Source: a virus (Duplodnaviria > Heunggongvirae > Uroviricota > Caudoviricetes). Taken from it: a DNA stretch of 52,019 bases. This document shows, in pieces, positions 4,559 through 47,615 of this stretch. The notes under the pieces are model-generated. The model saw only the letters and a list, made by a program, of their open reading frames with translations, had not been told where the DNA came from and made no database searches. Each line of letters opens with the position of its first letter. Within the stretch, counting starts at the first letter, position 1. A program made the position numbers and the translations under genes. Where the stretch lies: the IMG/VR virus record IMGVR_UViG_2724679140_000011, positions 1 to 52,019 of that record; one strand, 5' to 3'.

Positions 4559-6217
4559 TTACTGACTCAGACTGTTTATATTTTTCTGGAGTTGTTGCTT
4601 TGCCTGCATAATGCGCCAAGCCTCACTTCCTTCCGGTGGAACATACCGGCCACCAACAACCAGTGGCAGAGAAAGCACTTCGGATGAGTTTTTCGTCATC
4701 CTCCGTGTCCGTTCACGACCTTTAGCAAACCGGATCAGTTTGTGTCTGATGTAGTTACTTACCTCTGGGCTTATTTCCATCGGGAAACTGCTCAACCCAT
4801 CAGGCCATTCACCGAATTTCTCCCTGAAAGTGTGAGCACACCATCCATCACTGACTGGACGCCCCAGCGAAGCACGCTGGCGCTGATAAAATTTGATCTG
4901 ACTCCACCAGGACTGTTTCTCTGCCTTCGTCGACTGATGCTGATTTTTACCCAGCTTATTAAGTTTGCGGCTGGTGTCAGTATCAACGTCTTCACCTCGC
5001 AGCGGCTTGTGTCCACATTTCGGGCAAACATAGACGCCAGCTGGCTTCATGTAGTGGCATTGAGAGCATTCATGTGGCAGTTTTTCGGCCCGTTCCTCAG
5101 CTGCGCGGCGCGCGCTTTCCTCCATGCCGTCAGACTTACCGGGAAGATCGTCGTACTCGATTGAATCCGGATAACCCAGACGGTGCACGGTGCCGCTGTG
5201 ATCGAAGATAAGGCAGGACTCTTTACCCGGTGCGGTGCGCAGTCCACGCCCGAGAGCCTGTAACCAGCGAATTTCGCTTTTTGTTGGCCTGGCGTAGATG
5301 ATGCAACGAACGTCACTATCGAAGCCGGCCACCAGAACGCCCACACTAACAATGATTTTCGTTGCACCGGTTTCAAAGCGGTGAATGATGGTCTGGCGCT
5401 CATCTACCGGAGTGTCTGCGGTCATTACCTCAGCGTTAACACCTGCGAGGTTAAACTGGATTGTCAGGTAATTGGCGTGGGCTACGTTGACGCAGAAAGC
5501 GATGGTAGGTAGATCCCGACCATTCTCCAGCCAGTTCTGTACGATGTCGCCCACCAGCGTAGATCCGCACATGATTTCAGCCAGCTGTGTTTCGTTGTAA
5601 TCGCGGCCGTACTCAAGCGAAGATGTGGTTTTAACACCTTTCAGATCCGGCTTAGTTGGCGCGTAAAATTCGTATTTACTCAGATCGCCACGCTGGATTA
5701 ACTCGCCGATGGTGGTCGGCTTAATCAGTCGGTCATAGTATTTGCCCAGGAACGGAGAAAACGGAGTACCCGACAGGCCAATCACCTTTACGCCTTTGCC
5801 GCGCAGACATTCGATATCCTTCAGGATGCGTTTTTTACGCAGGTGCGCTTCGTCGATAATCAGCAGATCGATATTTTCAGGAAAAACACGACGAATAAGC
5901 GTGTCAGCGCTGGCAATCTGAATTTTCCGGTCCGGATCGTAGTTCGGGTGATCCGCCCAGATATAACCGATTTCATCTCCAGGTAAACCATACTGCACAA
6001 ACCGATTAGCCGTCTGACCAATCAGGATGGTGTACGGAACACAGAACAGAACGCGCATACCACGGCTGACAAAACCAGCAACTATGAAGGCTGCCAGACC
6101 CGTTTTACCGCTACCGGTTGGCGAGTACACCATGAAGGTGTCGTTTGCCTTCCAGTCACGGCGCAACATGTTTAGCGCACGCTCCTGTGCAAAATTCGGC
6201 GTGATTGTCAGCTGCAT
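4559..6217 (-). CDS. SF2 DEAD/DEAH-box helicase, phage replicative helicase
   Basis: Walker A SPTGSGKT, DEAH box IIDEAH, motif VI QALGRGLR, C-terminal CxxC...CxxC zinc ribbon. Confidence 0.8.
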   Translation of the reverse strand: MQLTITPNFAQERALNMLRRDWKANDTFMVYSPTGSGKTGLAAFIVAGFVSRGMRVLFCVPYTILIGQTANRFVQYGLPGDEIGYIWADHPNYDPDRKIQIASADTLIRRVFPENIDLLIIDEAHLRKKRILKDIECLRGKGVKVIGLSGTPFSPFLGKYYDRLIKPTTIGELIQRGDLSKYEFYAPTKPDLKGVKTTSSLEYGRDYNETQLAEIMCGSTLVGDIVQNWLENGRDLPTIAFCVNVAHANYLTIQFNLAGVNAEVMTADTPVDERQTIIHRFETGATKIIVSVGVLVAGFDSDVRCIIYARPTKSEIRWLQALGRGLRTAPGKESCLIFDHSGTVHRLGYPDSIEYDDLPGKSDGMEESARRAAEERAEKLPHECSQCHYMKPAGVYVCPKCGHKPLRGEDVDTDTSRKLNKLGKNQHQSTKAEKQSWWSQIKFYQRQRASLGRPVSDGWCAHTFREKFGEWPDGLSSFPMEISPEVSNYIRHKLIRFAKGRERTRRMTKNSSEVLSLPLVVGGRYVPPEGSEAWRIMQAKQQLQKNINSLSQ

Positions 6218-25104: not shown

Positions 25105-25655
25105 TGATGCCTGAACGCATTAATCCCCATTTTTCTGGCTTGCATCCTGCAGTCATTTCCAGGTATAGTTTTTCCGCTGCCGCAAAATCGGCAGCCGGAA
25201 TTGGCGTTCCGCGAAACTCAATGGCGACACCAGACGCGCCAAGCGTCTTTTTTTTCGTCGAAGCTCTGGCACACCCATTTTCCAGGCTGTGGTGTTTATG
25301 CGTACACCGTGGTTCTTTCGAGATAATGGCAGTCCGGGCGGGGCAGCCTTCGGGCTGGCCGGTATCCATTGAGGCCGGTTACGCCAACCCCGTTCGGGCT
25401 GCCACCAGTGAAATTGGCGTTTCCGGTGGTAGCAATAACCGCTACTCAATGGAGGCTGCCATCATGGCTACAACCCTCACCCCGTTTTACCCGCAATATG
25501 TCTTTGTGCTTGCCGCAATCCGCCGTGCTGACACTCAACCCCGCATCTGTATGCTTCGCACCGTGGCCTGCGATGAGCGCTTTGCACGCCTTTCGCTGGT
25601 CCGTGATTATGTGCTCTCCCTTTCTGCACGGCTGCCTGCCGGGGAGGTGATGTGA
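25104..25655 (+). CDS. hypothetical protein (P4 early region; start uncertain)
   Basis: ORF in GC-rich region; several overlapping frames, weak call. Confidence 0.3.
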
Positions 25656-35564: not shown

Positions 35565-36881
35565 ATGGCCGTCAATCTTACTGAAACAGCCATCCGAGCA
35601 TTGAAAGCAAAAAAGACATCGTTCTATGTCTGGAGCAACAGCTCTCAACGTGGCACTGGACGACTTGGTGTCAAAGTTCAGTCTTCTGGCAGCAAGATTT
35701 TCTATTTCCGCTATTATGTGGAAAAAGGGAAAAAAGAAAGATTCATTCAATTGGGTATATGGCCTGAGATGAAACTGGCCACAGCGAATGAACTGGCAAA
35801 AAAGTATGGTGCCTGGCTCATTGAAGGAAAGGATCCCCAGGCAGAACTGGAACGACAACAGTTTGCAGAACAGCAGCGGATACAACTCCATCAATCACAG
35901 GGCTCATTTGAAGCATTGATTCATGGTTATGTTAACAAAATGAAAATTGATAATAAGAGGACATGGCAGGATGTTCTGAAACGCCTTGAAAATGAATGCT
36001 ATACAGTGATCCCCCGTGAAACTAAAGCTAAAGATGTGACTTCCGGACAGATTAAACATATCCTGGCCGGGATCATTCAGCGTGGTGCTGTGGTTCACTC
36101 TAACCGGATCCGTTCTTACCTGATGGCTGCATTTAACTATGGACTGAAAGCAGATAACGATCCGATGAACACAAGTGCAGGGATTACTTTTGGGCTGGAG
36201 GCAAATCCGGTGTCAGTGATACCGAAACAGTCATCTGCTGAAAAAGTCGGTGATACTTGGCTGACACTTGAAGAGTTGCGTTTTCTAATGGAACATTTTG
36301 CTGAAGCAACCAACGTTGGATTATTGATGCAACATTTGATCCGATTCTGTATCTATACCGGAGGGCAACGTCCCTTCGAAATGATCGCCAGTCAGTGGTG
36401 TGATGTTGATTTTCAACAAAAAACGCTGCTGGTGACTGCTGATGTCTCTAAAAATAAACGAGAGCATTTGATACCGTTGACTGAATCAGCATTACAGGAA
36501 TTATCCTGTGTGCAGGAGTTAACAAAAGAAAAATCCAGCCCTTACATTTTTCCACTTTCGACTAATGGTAAGCGTCCGGTTCGTACGGACAGTCTGGCTC
36601 GCGCTATCATGTATTTCCGGGCTTTTAATCCTGACTTTAAAATTTTTACAGCACGTGACTTACGTCGGACCTGTAAAACGTTAATGGGAGAAGCTGGGAT
36701 CAGTAAGGAGATCCGCGATCGTATTCAAAATCATGCGTTGAACGATGTCAGTTCAAAACATTATGATCGATACGATTATTTGCCAGAAAAACGCAGAGCA
36801 CTTGAGATCTGGGAGGACCGGGTTAATAACTATCAACAGCAAACAGGCAATAATGTTGTCAATCTGTTTGGCAGAAGGTGA
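35565..36881 (+). CDS. P4-type tyrosine integrase
   Basis: 438 aa; N-terminus ...TSFYVWSNSSQ...KIFYFRYY typical of the P4-type arm-binding domain; adjacent to the tRNA fragment. Confidence 0.9.
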   Translation: MAVNLTETAIRALKAKKTSFYVWSNSSQRGTGRLGVKVQSSGSKIFYFRYYVEKGKKERFIQLGIWPEMKLATANELAKKYGAWLIEGKDPQAELERQQFAEQQRIQLHQSQGSFEALIHGYVNKMKIDNKRTWQDVLKRLENECYTVIPRETKAKDVTSGQIKHILAGIIQRGAVVHSNRIRSYLMAAFNYGLKADNDPMNTSAGITFGLEANPVSVIPKQSSAEKVGDTWLTLEELRFLMEHFAEATNVGLLMQHLIRFCIYTGGQRPFEMIASQWCDVDFQQKTLLVTADVSKNKREHLIPLTESALQELSCVQELTKEKSSPYIFPLSTNGKRPVRTDSLARAIMYFRAFNPDFKIFTARDLRRTCKTLMGEAGISKEIRDRIQNHALNDVSSKHYDRYDYLPEKRRALEIWEDRVNNYQQQTGNNVVNLFGRR

Positions 36882-36980: not shown

Positions 36981-37607
36981 GTGCCGGTATTACTCAGAGG
37001 GGATTCAAAAATGGCTGTAATTCCAATGTCTTACTCCCCTGCTACTGTAGCTCGTCGTTTTTCGATACTGGATGGAGTAACTATTCAGGGCGTGCTTTAC
37101 CAGATCATCTGGGATCCAAAGACTCCGTTTGCTGCGGTAATCGAAGCTGCACCTTCTGTTATTGATGGTGATGTTCGCCATAAGGTTGTTGCCACTCTGG
37201 AGCTTCAGCGTCGTCCCCGGCTTGAAGGCGTGTTTGTCCAGAAATTCTGGGAAGAACAGGATGTTGCTCAGATTGAAGGGATTGTTGTCGATGGCGCTGT
37301 ACGTGATGTTGGTCTTGCAACGTTTGTTTATGAAACGATAGTCACAAAAGCGGGCGTTGTACTATTAAGTGATAACGAGCAATATGAAGGAGGTAAAGCT
37401 CTCTGGCAGCATATTGCGCGTCGTTCAACGAATCTGAAGGTGTTTATTTTAGATACTGATTCCGCACGGTATTACCCGTTTGATGGCGAACGGATCAGTT
37501 ATGACGGGAAAAGCATCCCGGAATCAGAAATCTGGAGTGAACATCCTGAGCGAAACAGACACGCTGTCGTTCTTGTGGCTGAATCTGTTAATGGCAAAGC
37601 CGCATAA
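36981..37607 (+). CDS. hypothetical protein, about 200 aa
   Basis: ORF downstream of the integrase, convergent with the 534-aa gene. Confidence 0.5.
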   Translation: MPVLLRGDSKMAVIPMSYSPATVARRFSILDGVTIQGVLYQIIWDPKTPFAAVIEAAPSVIDGDVRHKVVATLELQRRPRLEGVFVQKFWEEQDVAQIEGIVVDGAVRDVGLATFVYETIVTKAGVVLLSDNEQYEGGKALWQHIARRSTNLKVFILDTDSARYYPFDGERISYDGKSIPESEIWSEHPERNRHAVVLVAESVNGKAA

Positions 37608-37689: not shown

Positions 37690-39294
37690 TTACTGTTCGA
37701 CCAGACATTTTCCCCATAAAGGTCGTATCGAGTATCTATCTTCGCTATATGGATTTATTTTATTTTTTTCCCTCTGTGCTATCAGCAACGTGTCGATCTC
37801 ATCCTTAATAATGTGTTGAACTGCTTGACGGTAACGGTTAAGCGAAGTGTCACTGATATCTTGTGGAAGTTGTAGACTGCTATCTGCCTTGACGAGTTCA
37901 TTCACACCATCTTTAATTTTGCGTCCCTGACCATCAGGTATACCTTCATTCAGATCATAGCCTTTCAGTCCTGCAAGACGAATATTCACGTCAATCTTTT
38001 CTGTACGTTTCTTTTTGTTACTTACCAACAGAATTTTATTGGCGTTATACCATTTTTCAAATGTTTCCAGTTGTTTCATGATGTTTGTGAAGTTATTCAG
38101 TTCGCTCCTGAATTCAATAGATTTTCTAATTTCACGCTCTTTTGCATCAATGTTTATTCCTGGATAATTTATTTCCCTTTTTAACGGTTCTATGTATGCC
38201 TGTTGCAGGCAACCAGCAAGATTCATTGCTGCATCCTGCAGGGTATTGGTATAAATCAGTTTCAGAAGTTCATCGCGCTGTATAGTGATTTGACAATAGT
38301 CTTTTTCCCATGCGGTGGTGTTTTCAATCGTGTCACTTTCATCGGAAATAATTGTTGTGAATTTCCAGGTGTAACGAATAAAATCATTTCCTTTAAAATA
38401 TTGCACTAATTTATTTAACCATTCATATATTTCCAGAGCATAAAGTTTAACGTATCCATCATATATTATCTTTGTTGCATTTTTGTTGGCTAGCGAAAAC
38501 ATTTTGTCCACGAATTCTGTACGCCCGATTGTTAGCAATTGTTTTCTAAGTTTACTCACATCGTTAGTATCTGGTTTCTCACAATTCCAGGGACTTTTGT
38601 ATTCATTTTCAAAAGGAGAAAGCCATTCAGGAATCTCTGTTTTTGAGTGATAGCAGTTGTTAATAGCCAAACCAAGGGTTCTGGCAAGTATCGCTGATTC
38701 ATCAATTTGATGGTATCGGTTCAGTTGTTCCAGTAATTCTTTAGTACATGAGTGCGCAACAGAAAGATCCTGATGGCAATATCCTTGTCGAACCAGAGCG
38801 GGAAGTGGTGAGCAATGAGCTTTACAATCTGTCAGAATATTGAACAAATCGTTTCTGACGAATTCTTCCATCTCAGGTGTTTTCCAGCCACCACTATTTT
38901 GGCCGACAAATTTTGCTGTTGGTTCCCTGTTCATATCTCCCCAGGTTTTCAGGCTGACGAGTCTGTTATCAAAACCATTGTATAAATGGCACATAACCTG
39001 AAAAGCAGCATACAGCTCTTTAGATAGTGGATTATCGGTCTCACCTATGGAGTAGTCCTCTCTATTTTGCTCTAAAATATTTTGTAGTTTTGTGTTAGCG
39101 CGTAATGCCGAGAGAATCCGATGTTGTTCATCAAACCAGGGACGATATTCTGGATCCAGATACAATCTGCGTGCTTTGAAAATGAGTAGAAGCAACTGTT
39201 CGGAAACAGCTTCATGTATGTGGGGAAACGGCATGGAGGTGCCAGATAAAACACGATAGTACGGGTGGTTTGTTTTTACCTTTTTAGTTACCAT
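37690..39294 (-). CDS. hypothetical protein, 534 aa, AT-rich orphan gene
   Basis: Long ORF in AT-rich DNA with no recognisable motif; integrase-proximal position. Confidence 0.65.
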   Translation of the reverse strand: MVTKKVKTNHPYYRVLSGTSMPFPHIHEAVSEQLLLLIFKARRLYLDPEYRPWFDEQHRILSALRANTKLQNILEQNREDYSIGETDNPLSKELYAAFQVMCHLYNGFDNRLVSLKTWGDMNREPTAKFVGQNSGGWKTPEMEEFVRNDLFNILTDCKAHCSPLPALVRQGYCHQDLSVAHSCTKELLEQLNRYHQIDESAILARTLGLAINNCYHSKTEIPEWLSPFENEYKSPWNCEKPDTNDVSKLRKQLLTIGRTEFVDKMFSLANKNATKIIYDGYVKLYALEIYEWLNKLVQYFKGNDFIRYTWKFTTIISDESDTIENTTAWEKDYCQITIQRDELLKLIYTNTLQDAAMNLAGCLQQAYIEPLKREINYPGINIDAKEREIRKSIEFRSELNNFTNIMKQLETFEKWYNANKILLVSNKKKRTEKIDVNIRLAGLKGYDLNEGIPDGQGRKIKDGVNELVKADSSLQLPQDISDTSLNRYRQAVQHIIKDEIDTLLIAQREKNKINPYSEDRYSIRPLWGKCLVEQ

Positions 39295-40073
39295 AATGTT
39301 AAATTCTTCCGTCTATTGCATAGCTGTTTCCTGTAGAGAAACTTGATACAGTCCTTTGTCAGGACATTGATACAGAGTTAACAGCCTCTACGAAATGGGA
39401 ATCAGTTATGCAGTGGCATTATACGATGCTGAATCTAATACGATATCCTTAGCGTTTATTCCTGATTTTTTTACGAGCATTCCCTTTTGTTGCATATTGC
39501 TCAGGACGTAAATGATTTTACGGTTATAGCCCTCTACAGTCACGTCACTTTCATCTGAAAATATGTATCGTTTTCATTCAATTATTATCTTTTGTCTGCA
39601 CTTTAGCTTTAGCAAGTTGGCAAAAATCAACTCCCTCTTACAAGTTCTATTATCGCTAGAAGATAATTTTGTGAACTTCGTCACGTTTTCAAACTAATGT
39701 TGTGGGGGCTTTTCTGGGGAAAATTTTTGGTCACTACCCCTCCTCTTGATATCATAGATCATAACAAGATTTTTTTTGTTTTTGTCTGCATAAAATAACC
39801 TACGAAGATTATGATTTTGGTTTTTATTTTGTATATTAAAAAGTATTGTTTGAATTATTTTTATATTGTGACTTTCTTTGTTGTTATTGTGTTATAAGAA
39901 GTCAGTTAATTAAATCAATTCTCGCAATTTGATTTCTTTGTTGTGCAAATGTATTGTTTTGCTCGTGAGTTGCTGGTGCTGTTCAGCAGCATACCACTAC
40001 AGATAGATGTAGTGATTTGAGCAGCTCACATGCATATACAATCTGAAAATCATGAATGTATAAGGAGAGCAAT

Positions 40074-40301
40074 ATGTGGAAGCCGTTAAGAGATGAGAAC
40101 CGTTTATCAATTTTGAAGATCTATGGATACACCTGTGACAGACTGGTACGAGAAGAGGAACGTCAGAACATTACGTCTATTTCTCGTTCACAAGCCTGGA
40201 AACTGGAACGTGAAGGAAAATTCCCGCCACGTAAAACTATTGGAAAGAAATCCTGTGGATGGTTATTAAGTGATCTATTGTGGTGGATTAGTCAGTATTA
40301 A
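40074..40301 (+). CDS. AlpA-family DNA-binding regulator
   Basis: aaggag SD then ATG; ISRSQAWKLEREGKFPPRKTIGKKSCGWLLSDLLWWI resembles the AlpA HTH. Confidence 0.6.
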   Translation: MWKPLRDENRLSILKIYGYTCDRLVREEERQNITSISRSQAWKLEREGKFPPRKTIGKKSCGWLLSDLLWWISQY

Positions 40302-40363: not shown

Positions 40364-41110
40364 ATGATGAAACGTGTCTCTTTTTCTCTTGCAGAAACAT
40401 ATGAAGCTGATGTAATTAAAAAGTATCAGTATTTAAAAAAATGCTCATTTTCAGCAGCGATTAAAGAGTGTTTAAAGCTAGGGGCTCCTGTTTTAAACAG
40501 GATAAATGAAAATATTGCTGCTATAACTGATATAGAGGATAAGCTACGTCAGTTTTTTAATGAGGAACCATTTGTGCAACGGACAAAGCCTGAAATAACA
40601 AAAGGAGAGTTTTTTCATAGCATTTATAAATCGCATATCAAATATGAATATGATGTTCTCGATAGAAAGATATTTCCTCATGAAAGCACCAGAAATGCTA
40701 TGGGAGTTGCAGAGAAAAAGGGAATTAAAGAGAATGCGACCTTAATGCTGGAATATTATAAAGTTGAGAAGGCAATTTGTATTTACACGAACAGAAAAGT
40801 TTCCCATACCCTGAATTGTGCAGGAGGGTTTTATAAAACCATTCTGATTAAAACCAGTGTTTTTGGGGATTGTTTTTTTGACTTTTGCAATTCAGTTTGC
40901 CTGCCGATAGATGAGTTGATTGAGTATGGTACGAAAGAAACAGTGAGGCGACATCAGATTCGTAGTACAGGATTTTGTACTTTTCATATTCCGATTTTTT
41001 ATATCAACAATAAGGCTGTAATAGTGCCTGTTCTGAGAACAGAGGAAGTTTCACAAAGTTCCAGAACAGGTGGAGATGTTATTATTATTAACCCATTTGA
41101 AGATGAATGA
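40364..41110 (+). CDS. hypothetical protein, 248 aa, N-terminal RHH-like segment
   Basis: aaaggag SD; N-terminal KRVSFSLAETYEADVIKKYQ resembles a ribbon-helix-helix start. Confidence 0.55.
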   Translation: MMKRVSFSLAETYEADVIKKYQYLKKCSFSAAIKECLKLGAPVLNRINENIAAITDIEDKLRQFFNEEPFVQRTKPEITKGEFFHSIYKSHIKYEYDVLDRKIFPHESTRNAMGVAEKKGIKENATLMLEYYKVEKAICIYTNRKVSHTLNCAGGFYKTILIKTSVFGDCFFDFCNSVCLPIDELIEYGTKETVRRHQIRSTGFCTFHIPIFYINNKAVIVPVLRTEEVSQSSRTGGDVIIINPFEDE

Positions 41111-41331
41111 TTATGGCCCGCGTAGATTTATTCATAACCCAGAAATCGTGGTGTAAATGATGAACAGAAACCGCTTTCTGAGGTTAAAGAGAGCAATCAT
41201 TACCCGGGAGTGGCCAACTCTTTTATCGAGTACTTTTCCGATGTATCTGGAGAGTCTCCCTTAGAAAAGAGTAATGCGACTCAGGAAAAAACAGGTTCAA
41301 TAATTAATTCATGACACCAGTTTGAGGCATT

Positions 41332-41892
41332 ATGGCGAGTTTTGCATACATAGACTCTGAAAAATGGTCAAAACTTAATCGCTTAAAATCCATGATTCAG
41401 AGATATTTTAAAGAACCACTATTGCAGTTAACAGGCGAATTGGGTCGCCCGGATTATACTCTGGCAGACAGAAAACGGTTAGTTCGACTCCTGACGCAGG
41501 ATATGCAAAGGGGTGATATTCTGATTACTAAATCGTTAACTTGTTTTGGTAATACGCCGGAAAAAATACAGGAGGTTTTATCTTTAAGTATCAGACAAGG
41601 TATTAATATTTGCTTTTTTATGTCATCAGAGTTGCCGGATGGTGATGATATTCCTGTGGTACTCACCGGGATGATTTTACCTACAGATATTAGAGGAAAA
41701 ATTCCCGACATCAGTATCCGGAAAATTAAAAGAAAACCAGGAAGGAAAGAAGGGAGTATTCATAGTAAAAATATCAGACAGTTGAAATTGCAGGGGTTCA
41801 GTCAGTCACAAACAGCCAGAAAATTAAGCATCAGTTTATCCACTGTAAAAAGACACTGGGATAAAGGTATTGTTGATCTAACTGCAGAGTAA
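41332..41892 (+). CDS. degenerate serine-recombinase-like protein with C-terminal Hin-type HTH
   Basis: Resolvase-like layout with C-terminal SQSQTARKLSISLSTVKRH; the canonical YxRVS catalytic motif is not intact. Confidence 0.5.
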   Translation: MASFAYIDSEKWSKLNRLKSMIQRYFKEPLLQLTGELGRPDYTLADRKRLVRLLTQDMQRGDILITKSLTCFGNTPEKIQEVLSLSIRQGINICFFMSSELPDGDDIPVVLTGMILPTDIRGKIPDISIRKIKRKPGRKEGSIHSKNIRQLKLQGFSQSQTARKLSISLSTVKRHWDKGIVDLTAE

Positions 41893-42280
41893 TATTTTAT
41901 AGTCCTTGTAGCTATTGGCATTGGAGTTATAAATACATGTGTGTTGGATAGGTAATATATATTATATCTGTGATGTATAGTATCTGGTATCTGTGTAATG
42001 ATGGATATGATGTACTAATAGAGCTAATGGTATTCTGATACCAAATAATTAGTTGTGTATAGATCATAACTCTGTTTAATGTTTTAGAACGTTCTAATGT
42101 AACTGTGTAACATCATCCTGTTCTCTAATGTAACAATAGGTAGTAGCGTTTTTCTTAATTGACGCCCAGAGGGTTATATATCCCTCTGGGAAGTACTGAT
42201 ACGAATATTAATATCTGCTTCTGTTGTGTATTGGGTAGGTTAACTATTAGCTTATCCCTGAAAGCAAAAGGAATATTAAC

Positions 42281-42895
42281 ATGATTACGATTGAAACTCT
42301 TTACGGTGAATGCCATGAGGCTCACGGGTTAAAAATAAGAAACCAGGTGGATAACCTTTTCCAGAAACATCCCAGAATAACGGCAATACGGGTGGATCTC
42401 CATTACCCTCCCGTGATTGACAACGGGGATACCATTACCTGTTTTCCTAACCTGAGTCCCGGAGAGATATCTCGTTTCCGTAACTCGCTGAATGCGAAAA
42501 TTAATGCAGATCAACACCGTAAAAAACAACAAGGCAAACGCACCTACGCAACGTCGGTTTGTATTATCTGGGCGAAAGAATATACGCAGTCCTTTAAATG
42601 TCATTATCACGTCTGCCTTTTTTTTAACAAAGACGCTTATTACCACCTGGGAGACTATGAGCGCTCTGACACCCTGAGAGGGTTAATTACCGGAGCCTGG
42701 TACAGTGCCTTAGGGTTAGAACTGGAAGATCACCAGGGACTAGTTCATTTCCCTGCTAATGGACGTTACATCCTGGATATTAACGATCCTGATTTCCCTG
42801 AGCAGTATCAGCGCTTATTGGCACGTCTGGATTATCTGACGAAGCTCGACACTAAAGCATCAGGCCAGCGTAACTTTGGCTACAGCGGTTTTTGA
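42281..42895 (+). CDS. YagK/YfjJ-family (inovirus Gp2-like) protein, tentative
   Basis: CHYHVCLFFNKD segment; family typical of CP4-type islands as recalled. Confidence 0.5.
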   Translation: MITIETLYGECHEAHGLKIRNQVDNLFQKHPRITAIRVDLHYPPVIDNGDTITCFPNLSPGEISRFRNSLNAKINADQHRKKQQGKRTYATSVCIIWAKEYTQSFKCHYHVCLFFNKDAYYHLGDYERSDTLRGLITGAWYSALGLELEDHQGLVHFPANGRYILDINDPDFPEQYQRLLARLDYLTKLDTKASGQRNFGYSGF

Positions 42896-42922: not shown

Positions 42923-43489
42923 ATGTATACAGAATCAAACGTTAAGCTTTCCTGTAATGCCCTCTGGCAAAAGTGTGTCCTTGCAACTCTGTACCGGGCT
43001 GCAGCTACACATCCTAAAATTAAATTATTACAATTTAAATTAATACCTTACCCTGGTATGAATAAGGCAATTCCATCTCTGATGGCTGATTTTACTGGTG
43101 AACTGCATAGACTAATTTCTGAATATTTGCAGTGTAAGCGACGTAAAGATAAATCTGTTGAGCCCACCCCTTTATATTATCTCTGGAGTAGGGAGGCCAT
43201 GGCTAACGATACCACTCCTTATCTTATGGTACTGCTACTTAATAACGATGTCTGGTGTAAGAGTCGTGAGGTGGTGGTTCTCAGAAATCTGATTGAGCAG
43301 GCGTGGGGAAAAGTATTGGATGAAGATAACTCTGTTACACATCTGGTTGTGTATCCTGAAGTGCTGTCGTTAGTATTTGATGCAGCTAACACATACAACA
43401 CTGAGCTTGGTGTACTGGAACAGACGGCCCAGGCTTACATTGAATCGCATGGTGCCATTGAACGTCATCTTGGGTGTAGTGACTTTTAA
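42923..43489 (+). CDS. paralogue of 42281..42895 (YagK/YfjJ-like)
   Basis: Similar length and shared YLMVLLLNND-type core with the upstream gene. Confidence 0.5.
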   Translation: MYTESNVKLSCNALWQKCVLATLYRAAATHPKIKLLQFKLIPYPGMNKAIPSLMADFTGELHRLISEYLQCKRRKDKSVEPTPLYYLWSREAMANDTTPYLMVLLLNNDVWCKSREVVVLRNLIEQAWGKVLDEDNSVTHLVVYPEVLSLVFDAANTYNTELGVLEQTAQAYIESHGAIERHLGCSDF

Positions 43490-45338: not shown

Positions 45339-47078
45339 TTGACTGGAAAATTATGTTGCAGGAACGAGAGGGCTGAGGAACAAAGCGTATTCCGGCGCTG
45401 TCCGTCCTTGCTGTCACTGACACTGATGTCTGTTTTACTATCGCCTTTATCTCTTCAGGCAGCGGATATCCGGCGTAGTGGAGAGGATACATTTATCATT
45501 CAGCAGCAGCGTCAGGAAGCCCTTGAGCAACAACTGACGCCTTCAGCCCCTGATGTTCGCCTTTCTGCACCTGGCTCTTTTGCCCATAAGATTAATTTTC
45601 CTGTTGAAACGCCCTGTTTTCAGATTAAACAGACGGAACTGAAGGGGGCTGATGCGTTACCACACTGGCTGCCTTTACAAAAAATCGCCAACGGGGCGGT
45701 CGGGCATTGCCTGGGGGCGAAAGGAATTAATCTGCTGATGAGTACATTGCAGAACCGTCTGGTCGATCATGGTTATGTCACCACCCGTGTTCTGGCACCT
45801 TCGCAGGATTTAAAAAGCGGTATCCTCCGGCTGGTTATTATTCCCGGTGTTGTGCGACATGTGCGTCTGACACCGGACAGTGATGACTATATTCAGTTGT
45901 ATTCCTCATTCCCGGCACACGAAGGTTCTCTGCTGGATTTACGGGACATTGAGCAGGGGCTGGAGAATATGCAACGACTGCCGGGTGTGCAGGCTGATAT
46001 GGAAATTGTGCCCGGTGAGCAGCCAGGGGAAAGTGATATTCTTATTACCCGTAAACAGGATAAATACTGGCGACTGGGGTTTTCGCTTGATGATTCAGGT
46101 ACCCGCAGCACAGGGCGTTATCTCGGTGGTATAACATTTTCTCTGGATAATCCTTTTTCCCTGAGTGACCTGCTGTATGTTTCTGCCACCCATAATTTTC
46201 CACATTACGGGGGTAAGGGCAGTAAAAACTACACGGCCCATTACTCTGTGCCTTTCGGTTACTGGCAGTTTTCCGTCACCGCCAGTGATTACGATTACCA
46301 TCAGACGGTAGCTGGTGCGGTTGAGGATTACCAGTACAGTGGCGAGAGTCAGAATCTGGGCATGCAGCTGAGCCGGGTACTGCACCGTAACGGGACGCAG
46401 AAAACGGTGCTGACTTACGATGTTCAGGCCCGCAGGTCGCGTAACTACATTAATGATACGGAAATCCAGGTGCAGCGCCGGCAGACAGCGGCCTGGCGAC
46501 TTGGGCTGCAGCACCGTCATTATATTTCTCAGGCCACACTGGATGCTGGTGTCAGCTGGCAACGGGGAACCCGCTGGTTTGGTGCACAGCCGGCACCGGA
46601 GGAAATCTTCGGTGAGGCAACGGCGCTCAGTAAGATCCTGCAGATGAATGCATCCTTTAATCTGCCCTTTACACTGGCAGAGCAGCCCTTCAGTTATTCC
46701 TTCCGGTATCAGCGCCAGCTGAGCAATACCCCGCTGACCCCACAGGAACAGTTTGCCATCGGTAACCGCTGGACGGTTCGTGGTTTTGACGGGGAGCGAA
46801 CGCTGAATGCCAGTAACGGCTGGTATATCCGCAACGACCTGGCCTGGCGTACGCCACTGCCGGAGCAGGAGTTATATCTGGGAATGGATTACGGCGAGGT
46901 GGGGGGAGCCGGCAGTGAATATCTGGTGGGACGTCATCTGGCCGGTGGTGTTGTGGGGCTGAGGGGGCAACTGTTCAGTACGGATTATGACGTTTTCATC
47001 GGTCGTCCGTTTTCAAAGCCGGCGGGTTTTATGACGAGTGATGTGACAGCCGGTTTTAATCTGTTCCGGGATTTCTGA
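45339..47078 (+). CDS. cdiB: two-partner secretion outer-membrane transporter (TpsB; ShlB/FhaC/CdiB family); start uncertain between 45339 and 45426
   Basis: RR-containing signal peptide, POTRA-like region, C-terminus ending GFNLFRDF typical of a beta-barrel. Confidence 0.85.
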
Positions 47079-47087
47079 GAAAGTTTC

Positions 47088-47615
47088 ATGCGTAACGGGA
47101 AATATGACGTTCTGAGTCCCCTGTATTCCGGTGAGCCGGTCAATGAGGCGGAAGTCCTGGGGGCGGCCGTCTGGTTGTGGATGCACTCCCCCCTGCATCG
47201 TGATGCGCCACTGCATACCCTGCCGGACCTGCTGCTGCCGGTGATTAAGCACCGACAGTATGTGGTGGCAACAGAGCAGGGGCGACCGGTTTTCTTCATG
47301 AGCCAGGCCTGGCTCAGCCCGGAGGCAGAGGCGCGTTATCTTACGCAGCCGGCAATTCTCATGCCTCAGTCGGACTGGAACAGCGGCGACCGGATGTGGG
47401 TCTGTGACTGGGTTGCCCCTTTTGGACACACTCCGGATATGAGTCGTCTTGTCCGGCAGGATATTTTTCCCCGTCTGTGCTGGCGTTCGCTGTACCACCG
47501 TGGGCAGCAGACCGGGTTACGGGTGATGAATTTCCGGGGTGCACAGGTCAGTCGTGAAGAGGCGCGCCAGTGGCGTGTGCAGCACCCGCTTGCTGTGGAT
47601 GTGCCGGAGAGATAA
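47088..47615 (+). CDS. cdiC: HlyC-family toxin-activating lysine acyltransferase (CdiC-like)
   Basis: VWLWMHSPLHRD...SGDRMWVCDWVAPFGH closely parallels HlyC VSWLW..SPLHRNW...SGDRKWFIDWIAPFG as recalled. Confidence 0.85.
   Translation: MRNGKYDVLSPLYSGEPVNEAEVLGAAVWLWMHSPLHRDAPLHTLPDLLLPVIKHRQYVVATEQGRPVFFMSQAWLSPEAEARYLTQPAILMPQSDWNSGDRMWVCDWVAPFGHTPDMSRLVRQDIFPRLCWRSLYHRGQQTGLRVMNFRGAQVSREEARQWRVQHPLAVDVPER

Follow-up and report, generated by a model that had tools for sequence, protein, structure and literature searches.

The DNA analysed here, called the window below, is a stretch of 52,019 nucleotides (nt) from a virus (Caudoviricetes; IMG/VR record IMGVR_UViG_2724679140_000011), and this work concerns two same-strand open reading frames (ORFs) at positions 40364–41892. 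The first one, at 40364–41110, encodes a protein of 248 amino acids (aa) and the second one, at 41332–41892, a protein of 186 aa. Both ORFs had been proposed in an earlier reading of the letters without database searches (the sequence-only reading), and both are genuine with the same coordinates. Each of them corresponds to a RefSeq coding sequence (WP_001373360.1 for the 248-aa protein and WP_000135717.1 for the 186-aa protein) and is preceded by a Shine-Dalgarno sequence, AGGAG 5 nt 5' of the ATG at 40364 and GAGG 5 nt 5' of the ATG at 41332. The pair consists of divergent yagM-like and yagL-like genes in the conserved backbone of a CP4-6-type island with a tyrosine integrase. The backbone module is composed of four genes, encoding an AlpA- or YkgV-type helix-turn-helix (HTH) protein, YagM, YagL, and YagK, and the pair forms its middle. 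The features of the module in the window are as follows.

40056–40301, + strand: AlpA-family HTH protein, 81-aa ORF with the RefSeq start at 40075 (Pfam Phage_AlpA PF05930, E 7.9e-14)
40364–41110, + strand: YagM-family protein, 248 aa (K-12 YagM homology; RefSeq 'YagM family protein')
40364–40507, + strand: ribbon-helix-helix (RHH)-like N-terminal segment of the YagM-like protein, residues 1–48 (CopG profile match, hhalign, model)
40601–41107, + strand: family-specific C-terminal alpha/beta domain of the YagM-like protein, residues 80–248
41332–41892, + strand: YagL-family pseudo-recombinase, 186 aa (K-12 YagL homology, family alignment)
41332–41667, + strand: catalytically dead resolvase-fold N-domain of the YagL-like protein, residues 1–112
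41728–41865, + strand: glycine-arginine (GR) minor-groove arm and HTH_7-type HTH of the YagL-like protein, residues 133–178 (Pfam HTH_7, family conservation, gamma-delta alignment)
42165–42190, no strand: palindrome CCCAGAGGG-N8-CCCTCTGGG with perfect 9-bp arms, 91 nt 5' of yagK
42281–42895, + strand: YagK/YfjJ ('inovirus Gp2 family') protein, 204 aa (Pfam YagK_YfjJ_C, E 4e-55; H-Y-H and Y-L-T-K motifs)

The relationship to Escherichia coli K-12 was established for all three yag genes. The 248-aa protein is 30% identical to K-12 YagM over 248 aa (E 5e-31), the homology spans the full length including the conserved C-terminal domain, and the 98%-identical cluster of the protein carries PF27701/UCP007319 in a precomputed annotation. 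The 186-aa protein is 35% identical to K-12 YagL (E 2e-25), and the product of 42281–42895 is 58% identical to K-12 YagK. The order of the K-12 cryptic prophage CP4-6, intF, yagN, ykgV, yagM, yagL, yagK, is found again in the window with the same orientation. The two elements differ in the upstream HTH protein, which is AlpA-type in the window island and YkgV-type in CP4-6, in a second, degenerate yagK copy carried by the window island, and in the chromosomal site. The pair is thus a divergent branch of known, uncharacterised families in a known type of island and represents no new kind of system. The sequence-only reading had recognised a real pair. It had overlooked the membership in the YagM and YagL families, the four-gene module, and the loss of the N-domain in some lineages that is described below. 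YagM and YagL are listed among the uncharacterised y-ome genes of K-12 (PMC11551758), and the only functional report on the pair describes an RNA-chaperone activity of K-12 YagL in vitro (PMC11587861). Of 5426 complete E. coli genomes, 257 carry a 2-kb segment with the pair at an identity of at least 95%, chromosomal every time and single-copy nearly every time. The reading frames of the pair are intact in most of the 257 carriers and across at least 8 genera.

The start of the 248-aa protein had been described as RHH-like in the sequence-only reading, and this assignment now has moderate support from profile comparison, hhalign, and the existence of split genes. A profile was made from 17 diverse N-termini of the YagM family and compared with the PDB. 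The best match was CopG (E 0.012), with residues 1–38 aligned in register to CopG residues 1–37. NikR and the Rv0298 antitoxin, both with RHH N-termini, were among ten weak matches (E about 1). In hhalign the N-terminus was aligned with CopG from residue 1 at a probability of 95.4%, in agreement with a strand-helix-helix pattern in its sequence. Sub-threshold Pfam matches were obtained to RHH_1, RHH_5, HicB_lk_antitox, RepB-RCR_reg, MatP_C, DUF6364, and DUF6290. In the monomer model, residues 1–13 are disordered and are followed by helices at 14–25 and 29–67, as would be expected of an RHH monomer modelled without its partner strand. In Photorhabdus and Yersinia, two ORFs take the place of YagM, an RHH-like one of 67 aa and one of 155–161 aa that holds the C-domain alone (locus L008 of our survey, 4996–5199 and 5212–5679, and locus L066, 5782–5985 and 6001–6486, respectively). 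The Yersinia C-domain protein occurs on 11 contigs, and the split was seen in both contigs that were checked (n = 2). Because the N-terminal segment exists as a separate 67-aa ORF in these two genera, it is an independent module. The organisation of the YagM-like protein as a predicted N-terminal RHH DNA-binding module joined to a family-specific C-terminal domain is well supported.

No match of the C-terminal domain to a solved fold was found. Against the PDB, the YagM family profile gave 13 weak matches, every one of them to dynein light chain LC8 (E 0.19–0.8). The LC8 likeness covers residues 113–181 (window 40700–40906); it was rejected as probably due to chance, with an hhalign probability of 24% and a predicted secondary structure that disagrees. 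The YagM family is very small, as 1.84 billion proteins yielded 49 representatives at E up to 1e-3, and no YagM homologue was found in 50,697 phage records. Membership of the pair in a defence or phage family was also considered and rejected, since there was no PADLOC match, PHROGs returned only an invertase HTH, and YagM is absent from the phage records.

The 186-aa YagL-like protein descends from a small serine recombinase and has kept the fold, the minor-groove GR arm, and the HTH. The sequence-only reading had pointed to a resolvase-like layout with a Hin-type C-terminal HTH, and three comparisons agree with it. First, Pfam HTH_7 matches residues 146–178 with 24.2 bits against a cut-off of 23.8. 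Second, the protein matches a PHROG annotated 'DNA invertase' (E 4e-6). Third, a hidden Markov model (HMM) of the N-domain, built from 24 other members of the YagL family with the window sequence left out, matches 18 intact small serine recombinases at 25–50 bits. These 18 recombinases carry Y-x-R-V-S-T and L-D-R-L-G-R, and the closest intact relatives of the YagL-like protein also end in ...TVKRHW. Descent from intact recombinases is further supported by a Providencia plasmid, described below, on which a recombinase with an intact active site and the same C-terminal motif lies directly 3' of a yagM homologue. Structural comparison showed the resolvase catalytic-domain fold in the YagL-like protein. 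The protein is collinear with gamma-delta resolvase from residue 1, and its arm and HTH align with the GRK arm and HTH of that enzyme. The segments 'GRKEGS' and 'ISLSTVKRHW' are invariant or almost so across the YagL family.

In contrast to the small serine recombinases (gamma-delta/Tn3, Hin, Gin, Sin, and PinR-like), with which it shares the catalytic-domain fold, the GR arm, and the C-terminal HTH, the YagL-like protein lacks the nucleophile motif, R8, D67, R68, R71, and recombination sites. The gamma-delta segment Y6-A-R8-V-S10-T corresponds to Y6-I-D-S-E-K and the segment L-D67-R68-L-G-R71 to L-T-C-F-G-N, so that D, T, C, and N stand in the places of R8, D67, R68, and R71, respectively. 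Members of the YagL family have S, I, C, T, P, L, A, V, H, Q, or K at the position of S10, and the consensus of the D67–R71 segment is L-S-C-L-G-R or L-N-S-L-G-E. A serine, S9, adjoins the nucleophile position in the window protein; it is without arginine partners and is not conserved. The statement of the sequence-only reading that no intact catalytic serine motif is present thus agrees with both the alignment to gamma-delta resolvase and the family columns. Pfam Resolvase (PF00239) did not match the 186-aa protein at E up to 1, and K-12 YagL itself scores 20.1 bits, which is under the cut-off of 23.3. The model of the YagL-like protein contains no helix between residues 112 and 144, with a low-confidence predicted local distance difference test score below 50 at residues 115–140, and there are five prolines in the region of helix E, the long helix that makes the dimer and tetramer interface in small serine recombinases. 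The window protein differs from K-12 YagL in that the loop following strand 1 is shorter, helix E is not predicted, and one stretch, discussed below, locally resembles hypoxanthine phosphoribosyltransferase (HPRT). A search for recombination sites at 35–46 kb gave a best inverted repeat of 27/34 matches, which is at chance level when compared with 24–28 in 12 composition-preserving shuffles. Neither an intact motif nor flanking inverted repeats, which together would mark a functional invertase, are therefore found at this locus. The YagL-like protein is predicted to be unable to cut or rejoin DNA in the way of a resolvase or invertase, and it would work like the DNA-binding half of a resolvase rather than like a recombinase. 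No precedent was found in a literature search on inactive serine recombinases.

Both yagM and yagL are under purifying selection in diverged homologues of the module. The ratio of non-synonymous to synonymous substitution rates (dN/dS) was computed between diverged homologous loci of other genera and not on the window's own copy. The values were 0.08–0.26 for whole yagL, 0.09–0.34 for its dead N-domain, 0.06–0.13 for its arm and HTH, 0.11–0.27 for yagM, and 0.06–0.23 for yagK. The DNA-binding parts of YagL are the most conserved. In addition, Kluyvera, Serratia grimesii, Buttiauxella, Scandinavium, and an uncultured Enterobacteriaceae metagenome-assembled genome (loci L018, L022, L023, L024, L030, and L031) carry a 58-aa mini-YagL that comprises just the GR arm and the HTH. 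In these loci the gap to yagM is about 80 nt and leaves no room for an N-domain. Therefore, the resolvase-like domain is absent there rather than frameshifted; it has gone altogether in some YagL lineages, which is another difference from the small serine recombinases. Because the 58-aa YagL consists of the arm and the HTH alone, the DNA-binding part is the indispensable part of YagL. The term 'domesticated recombinase' used in the sequence-only reading fits these results, since the fold and the DNA-binding C-terminus are kept, every catalytic residue is lost, and homologues are under purifying selection.

The YagL alignment was used to recover 51 loci, and the conserved context was surveyed in them with profiles of our own. 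In the Enterobacterales, yagK lies directly 3' of the YagL-family gene in 19/19 loci and yagM directly 5' of it in 18/19. Upstream, an integrase gene and an HTH gene of the YkgV or AlpA type are present in most of the 19 loci. The about 30 remaining loci hold recombinases of the usual, intact kind and lack the module. Across genera, yagM, yagL, and yagK have remained neighbours and have diverged in concert. In Pectobacterium and Yersinia the same order is followed by type I restriction-modification or Qat defence genes. The YagK motifs H-[YF]-H and Y-L-x-K are invariant in 9/9 aligned sequences from separate loci, and YagK gives a sub-threshold match to REP_ORF2-G2P (PF23343). Its Pfam family, PF11726, has been used as a replication-protein model for Inoviridae and Microviridae (10.1101/555375). 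YagK is thus a putative HUH-motif Rep-like protein. A small hairpin other than the window palindrome lies at the equivalent position, about 30–55 nt 5' of yagK, in other loci (L002, L010, L012, L014, L022, and L030). The hairpins read TACGGTC..GACCGTA, TACGGCT..AGCCGTA, or GGGTAGCG..CGCTACCC, with changes on both arms. The palindrome at 42165–42190 and these hairpins are possibly an operator, an origin element, a 5'-untranslated-region structure, or a nick site.

On this basis we propose a joint model, to which an even chance is given, in which the two proteins act as partners on DNA and regulate or help YagK during the life cycle of the excised island. The YagM-like and YagL-like proteins would bind island DNA sequence-specifically in the service of the island's own life cycle. 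They would repress, activate, or help to assemble the HUH-motif YagK on island DNA, and the YagK step would be the initiation of replication or transfer of the excised circle. Two options can be drawn by analogy. In the rolling-circle plasmid pMV158, the RHH repressor CopG (RepA) lies upstream of the HUH initiator RepB and controls it, and the pair might control the yagK operon in the same manner. RHH accessory proteins also take part in relaxosomes, and by this second analogy the pair might help to assemble YagK at a nick site. The dead resolvase domain may serve as an oligomerisation or partner-binding scaffold, which would be dispensable where YagL is the 58-aa arm and HTH. The comparison with pMV158 is favoured by the position of an RHH module just 5' of a putative HUH-motif initiator and by the alignment of the YagM N-terminus with CopG residues 1–37. 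On the other hand, YagM has an extra 170-aa domain, YagL intervenes before the HUH-like gene, the window element is an integrated island and not a plasmid, and its operator and origin are known as candidates only. The 'regulatory pair' suggested in the sequence-only reading is plausible.

Several points weigh against the joint model. No curated RHH family reaches the Pfam gathering threshold on the YagM N-terminus. The E. coli variants of the window copy differ too little for dN/dS (synonymous against non-synonymous changes are 2 against 7 in yagM and 3 against 3 in yagL); because these variants are so similar, the evidence for selection comes only from other branches of the two families. The HUH-like nature of YagK is suggested by motifs and naming only, and YagK gave no match against PDB sequences. 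Part of yagK matches 1047 genomes against 255 for the full block, and in CP4-57 the slot of yagM and yagL is held by a DUF3987 gene (yfjI). Since YagK-family genes are far more widespread, YagK does not need YagM or YagL. A k-mer search for an operator motif common to the loci returned only AT-rich, -10-like words. The DNA site, the protein contact, and the expression link of the pair are putative. Finally, K-12 YagL has been reported as an RNA chaperone in vitro (PMC11587861).

The strongest competitor to the joint model, which we regard as doubtful, is that the pair are transcription factors of the usual kind, which govern excision, immunity, or the expression of cargo and are mechanistically unconnected to YagK. 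They might, for instance, work with AlpA at the integrase gene or keep the cargo silent. Both proteins carry classical DNA-binding modules, the pair stands directly behind an AlpA-family gene, and YagK-family genes widely occur without the pair, as this explanation would have it. However, the invariable position of yagK 3' of yagL in the 19 loci and the joint divergence of the three genes argue for a tie to YagK. Moreover, the 170-aa C-domain of YagM and the selected dead resolvase domain of YagL exceed the needs of a simple repressor.

A main role of the YagL-like protein as a general RNA chaperone is very unlikely. K-12 YagL does bind single- and double-stranded RNA via its HTH and speeds up ribozyme refolding (PMC11587861). 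However, the activity is non-specific, was seen in vitro with a 232-aa construct, and leaves the strict island synteny unexplained, and the window copy is only 35% identical to K-12 YagL. The start of the annotated 232-aa K-12 YagL (L002, 4221–4919) is probably 43 codons too early. All YagL relatives including the window protein begin at M-R-S-F-F-Y, which is internal in the annotated K-12 protein, and the published chaperone work used a 27.2-kDa form of YagL (PMC11587861).

Slightly less credit still is given to the idea that both genes are decaying remnants without function. The island also holds pseudogenes, truncated variants make up 42 of 676 YagL-like and about 200 of 1500 YagM-like sequences, and the E. 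coli variation is too small to reveal selection on the window copy. Against decay stand the dN/dS of 0.08–0.27 between diverged loci and the intact frames in most of the 257 E. coli carriers and in at least 8 genera.

Several RefSeq genomes name the 186-aa protein 'type I phosphoribosyltransferase' (PRTase). The same accession, WP_000135717.1, is a 'hypothetical protein' in other genomes, and a near-identical GenBank locus has, in this position, a protein under the name 'DNA-binding protein'. The PRTase name stems from a local similarity to HPRT at residues 46–119 (window 41467–41688), where a single-sequence phmmer search against the PDB gave HPRT first (E 1e-4). This stretch spans the phosphoribosyl pyrophosphate (PRPP)-loop region and the next two strands, and by a rough hand count it is slightly closer to HPRT than to K-12 YagL. 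However, the PRPP motif, an acidic pair in [DE]-D...[ST]-G-x-T, was not found. The segment reads I-L-I-T-K-S-L-T-C-F-G-N-T, with K-S for E-D and C-F for D-S, and no PRTase is among the best structural matches. The window protein scores 22–25 bits to HPRT and the other 24 family members -0.6 to 12 bits. Each of these 24 scores higher to recombinases (14–38 bits) than to HPRT (12 bits or less), and the family N-domain HMM scores 10–14 bits to HPRT. The HPRT resemblance is peculiar to the divergent copy of the window, and the sole explanation offered is convergence in an equivalent strand-loop-helix-strand unit. A PRTase identity is rejected as hardly credible, given the lost acidic pair, the structural matches, and the preference of both the family members and the family HMM for recombinases. 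A working DNA invertase or resolvase, for which the collinear layout with gamma-delta and Tn3 resolvases and S9 beside the nucleophile position could be cited, is dismissed as equally incredible in view of the lost R8, D67, R68, and R71, the serine column that is not conserved in the family, the missing Pfam Resolvase match, the linker with five prolines and no predicted helix E, and the chance-level inverted repeats.

A more specific version of the joint model, which we consider unlikely, is that YagM, YagL, and YagK form an undescribed initiation module for the replication or transfer of non-conjugative enterobacterial defence islands. The domesticated recombinase would then be a subunit without catalytic activity that binds the origin or plays an architectural part, and it would recruit or license the HUH nickase; a Providencia plasmid would show the ancestral arrangement. 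This plasmid, NZ_CP114799 (L060, 4136 bp), carries a full-length yagM homologue directly 5' of an intact serine recombinase with Y-C-R-C-S, L-D-R-L-G-R-D, and a C-terminal end ...ATVKRHW. Its only other gene is a lipoprotein-like ORF. No yagM was found beside intact recombinases in 30 other loci, and recombinases 79% identical to the Providencia one lie on other plasmids without yagM. Therefore, the pairing of yagM with an intact recombinase is a single observation. The plasmid may show an ancestral state. A role of YagM as a plasmid replication protein, to which the three-gene make-up of this plasmid had pointed, was considered and rejected. About 510 bp of NZ_CP114799 (194–704) are 90–94% identical to a segment common to more than 300 small plasmids, one of which, p3M-2A, is typed as replicon Col3M. 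Col3M has a ColE1-like, RNA-primed origin, and on that basis YagM would not be required for its replication, even though an Rfam scan of NZ_CP114799 returned no RNAI.

The remaining features of the island in the window are the following.

35565–36881, + strand: tyrosine integrase of the island, 438 aa (RefSeq 'tyrosine-type recombinase/integrase' WP_000290292.1; 809 bits against the integrase profile)
36981–37607, + strand: cargo ORF, 208 aa (phrog_7522, E 2e-129, a phrog of no assigned function)
37690–39294, - strand: cargo ORF, 534 aa (no match in Pfam, NCBIfam, PHROGs, or PADLOC)
42923–43489, + strand: second, degenerate YagK-like paralogue, 188 aa (Pfam YagK_YfjJ_C, E 1.3e-10; without HUH and YxxK motifs)

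Both cargo ORFs sit between the integrase and alpA, a spot typical of defence cargo, and none of the island proteins matched PADLOC. The same architecture of integrase, cargo, AlpA, variable slot, and YagK/YfjJ-family gene is seen in CP4-57 (alpA, yfjI, yfjJ). It is also shared by the transfer-messenger RNA islands of Pseudomonas, which contain IntY, AlpA, and an inovirus Gp2-like gene (10.1101/2024.08.29.610337), and islands of both types often carry defence cargo. The block from the integrase to yagK adjoins nfeF in strain UC4224 and lies at the end of the ssrA/ypjA (CP4-57) region in RM10809-3 and in the window. Because the same block occupies different chromosomal sites, the element has moved. 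In the record CP101363.1 (Salmonella enterica 'plasmid' pIndS102_4, linear, 11.7 kb), the same island comes after chromosomal genes of the aer/nfeR/nfeF type, and its YagM-like protein is 98.8% identical. The record is probably a piece of chromosome deposited under the name of a plasmid, and the island occurs in Salmonella too if the organism label is correct. Downstream of the island backbone, from 45339–47615 onward, there is a two-partner secretion/contact-dependent inhibition locus with genes for a ShlB/FhaC-type transporter, a toxin-activating acyltransferase, and a haemagglutinin-repeat protein, which is partly pseudogenised in related strains. The Rfam scan found nothing within the module. 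Elsewhere in the window it matched the STnc100 small RNA (16–224, - strand), the isrK Hfq-binding RNA (25176–25253, + strand), and the C4 antisense RNA (25322–25409, + strand), and the latter two suggest a prophage immunity region.

The genes yagM, yagL, and yagK have long been without a characterised function in E. coli K-12, and their module is the backbone of integrase-borne islands of the Enterobacterales with restriction-modification, Qat, and other cargo. The finding of a YagL that is dead as a recombinase and yet under selection corrects both the view of YagL as a DNA recombinase (PMC11587861) and the RefSeq label 'type I phosphoribosyltransferase'. The conserved order of an RHH-like protein, a pseudo-resolvase, and an HUH-like protein leads to a testable hypothesis for how these islands may replicate or move.

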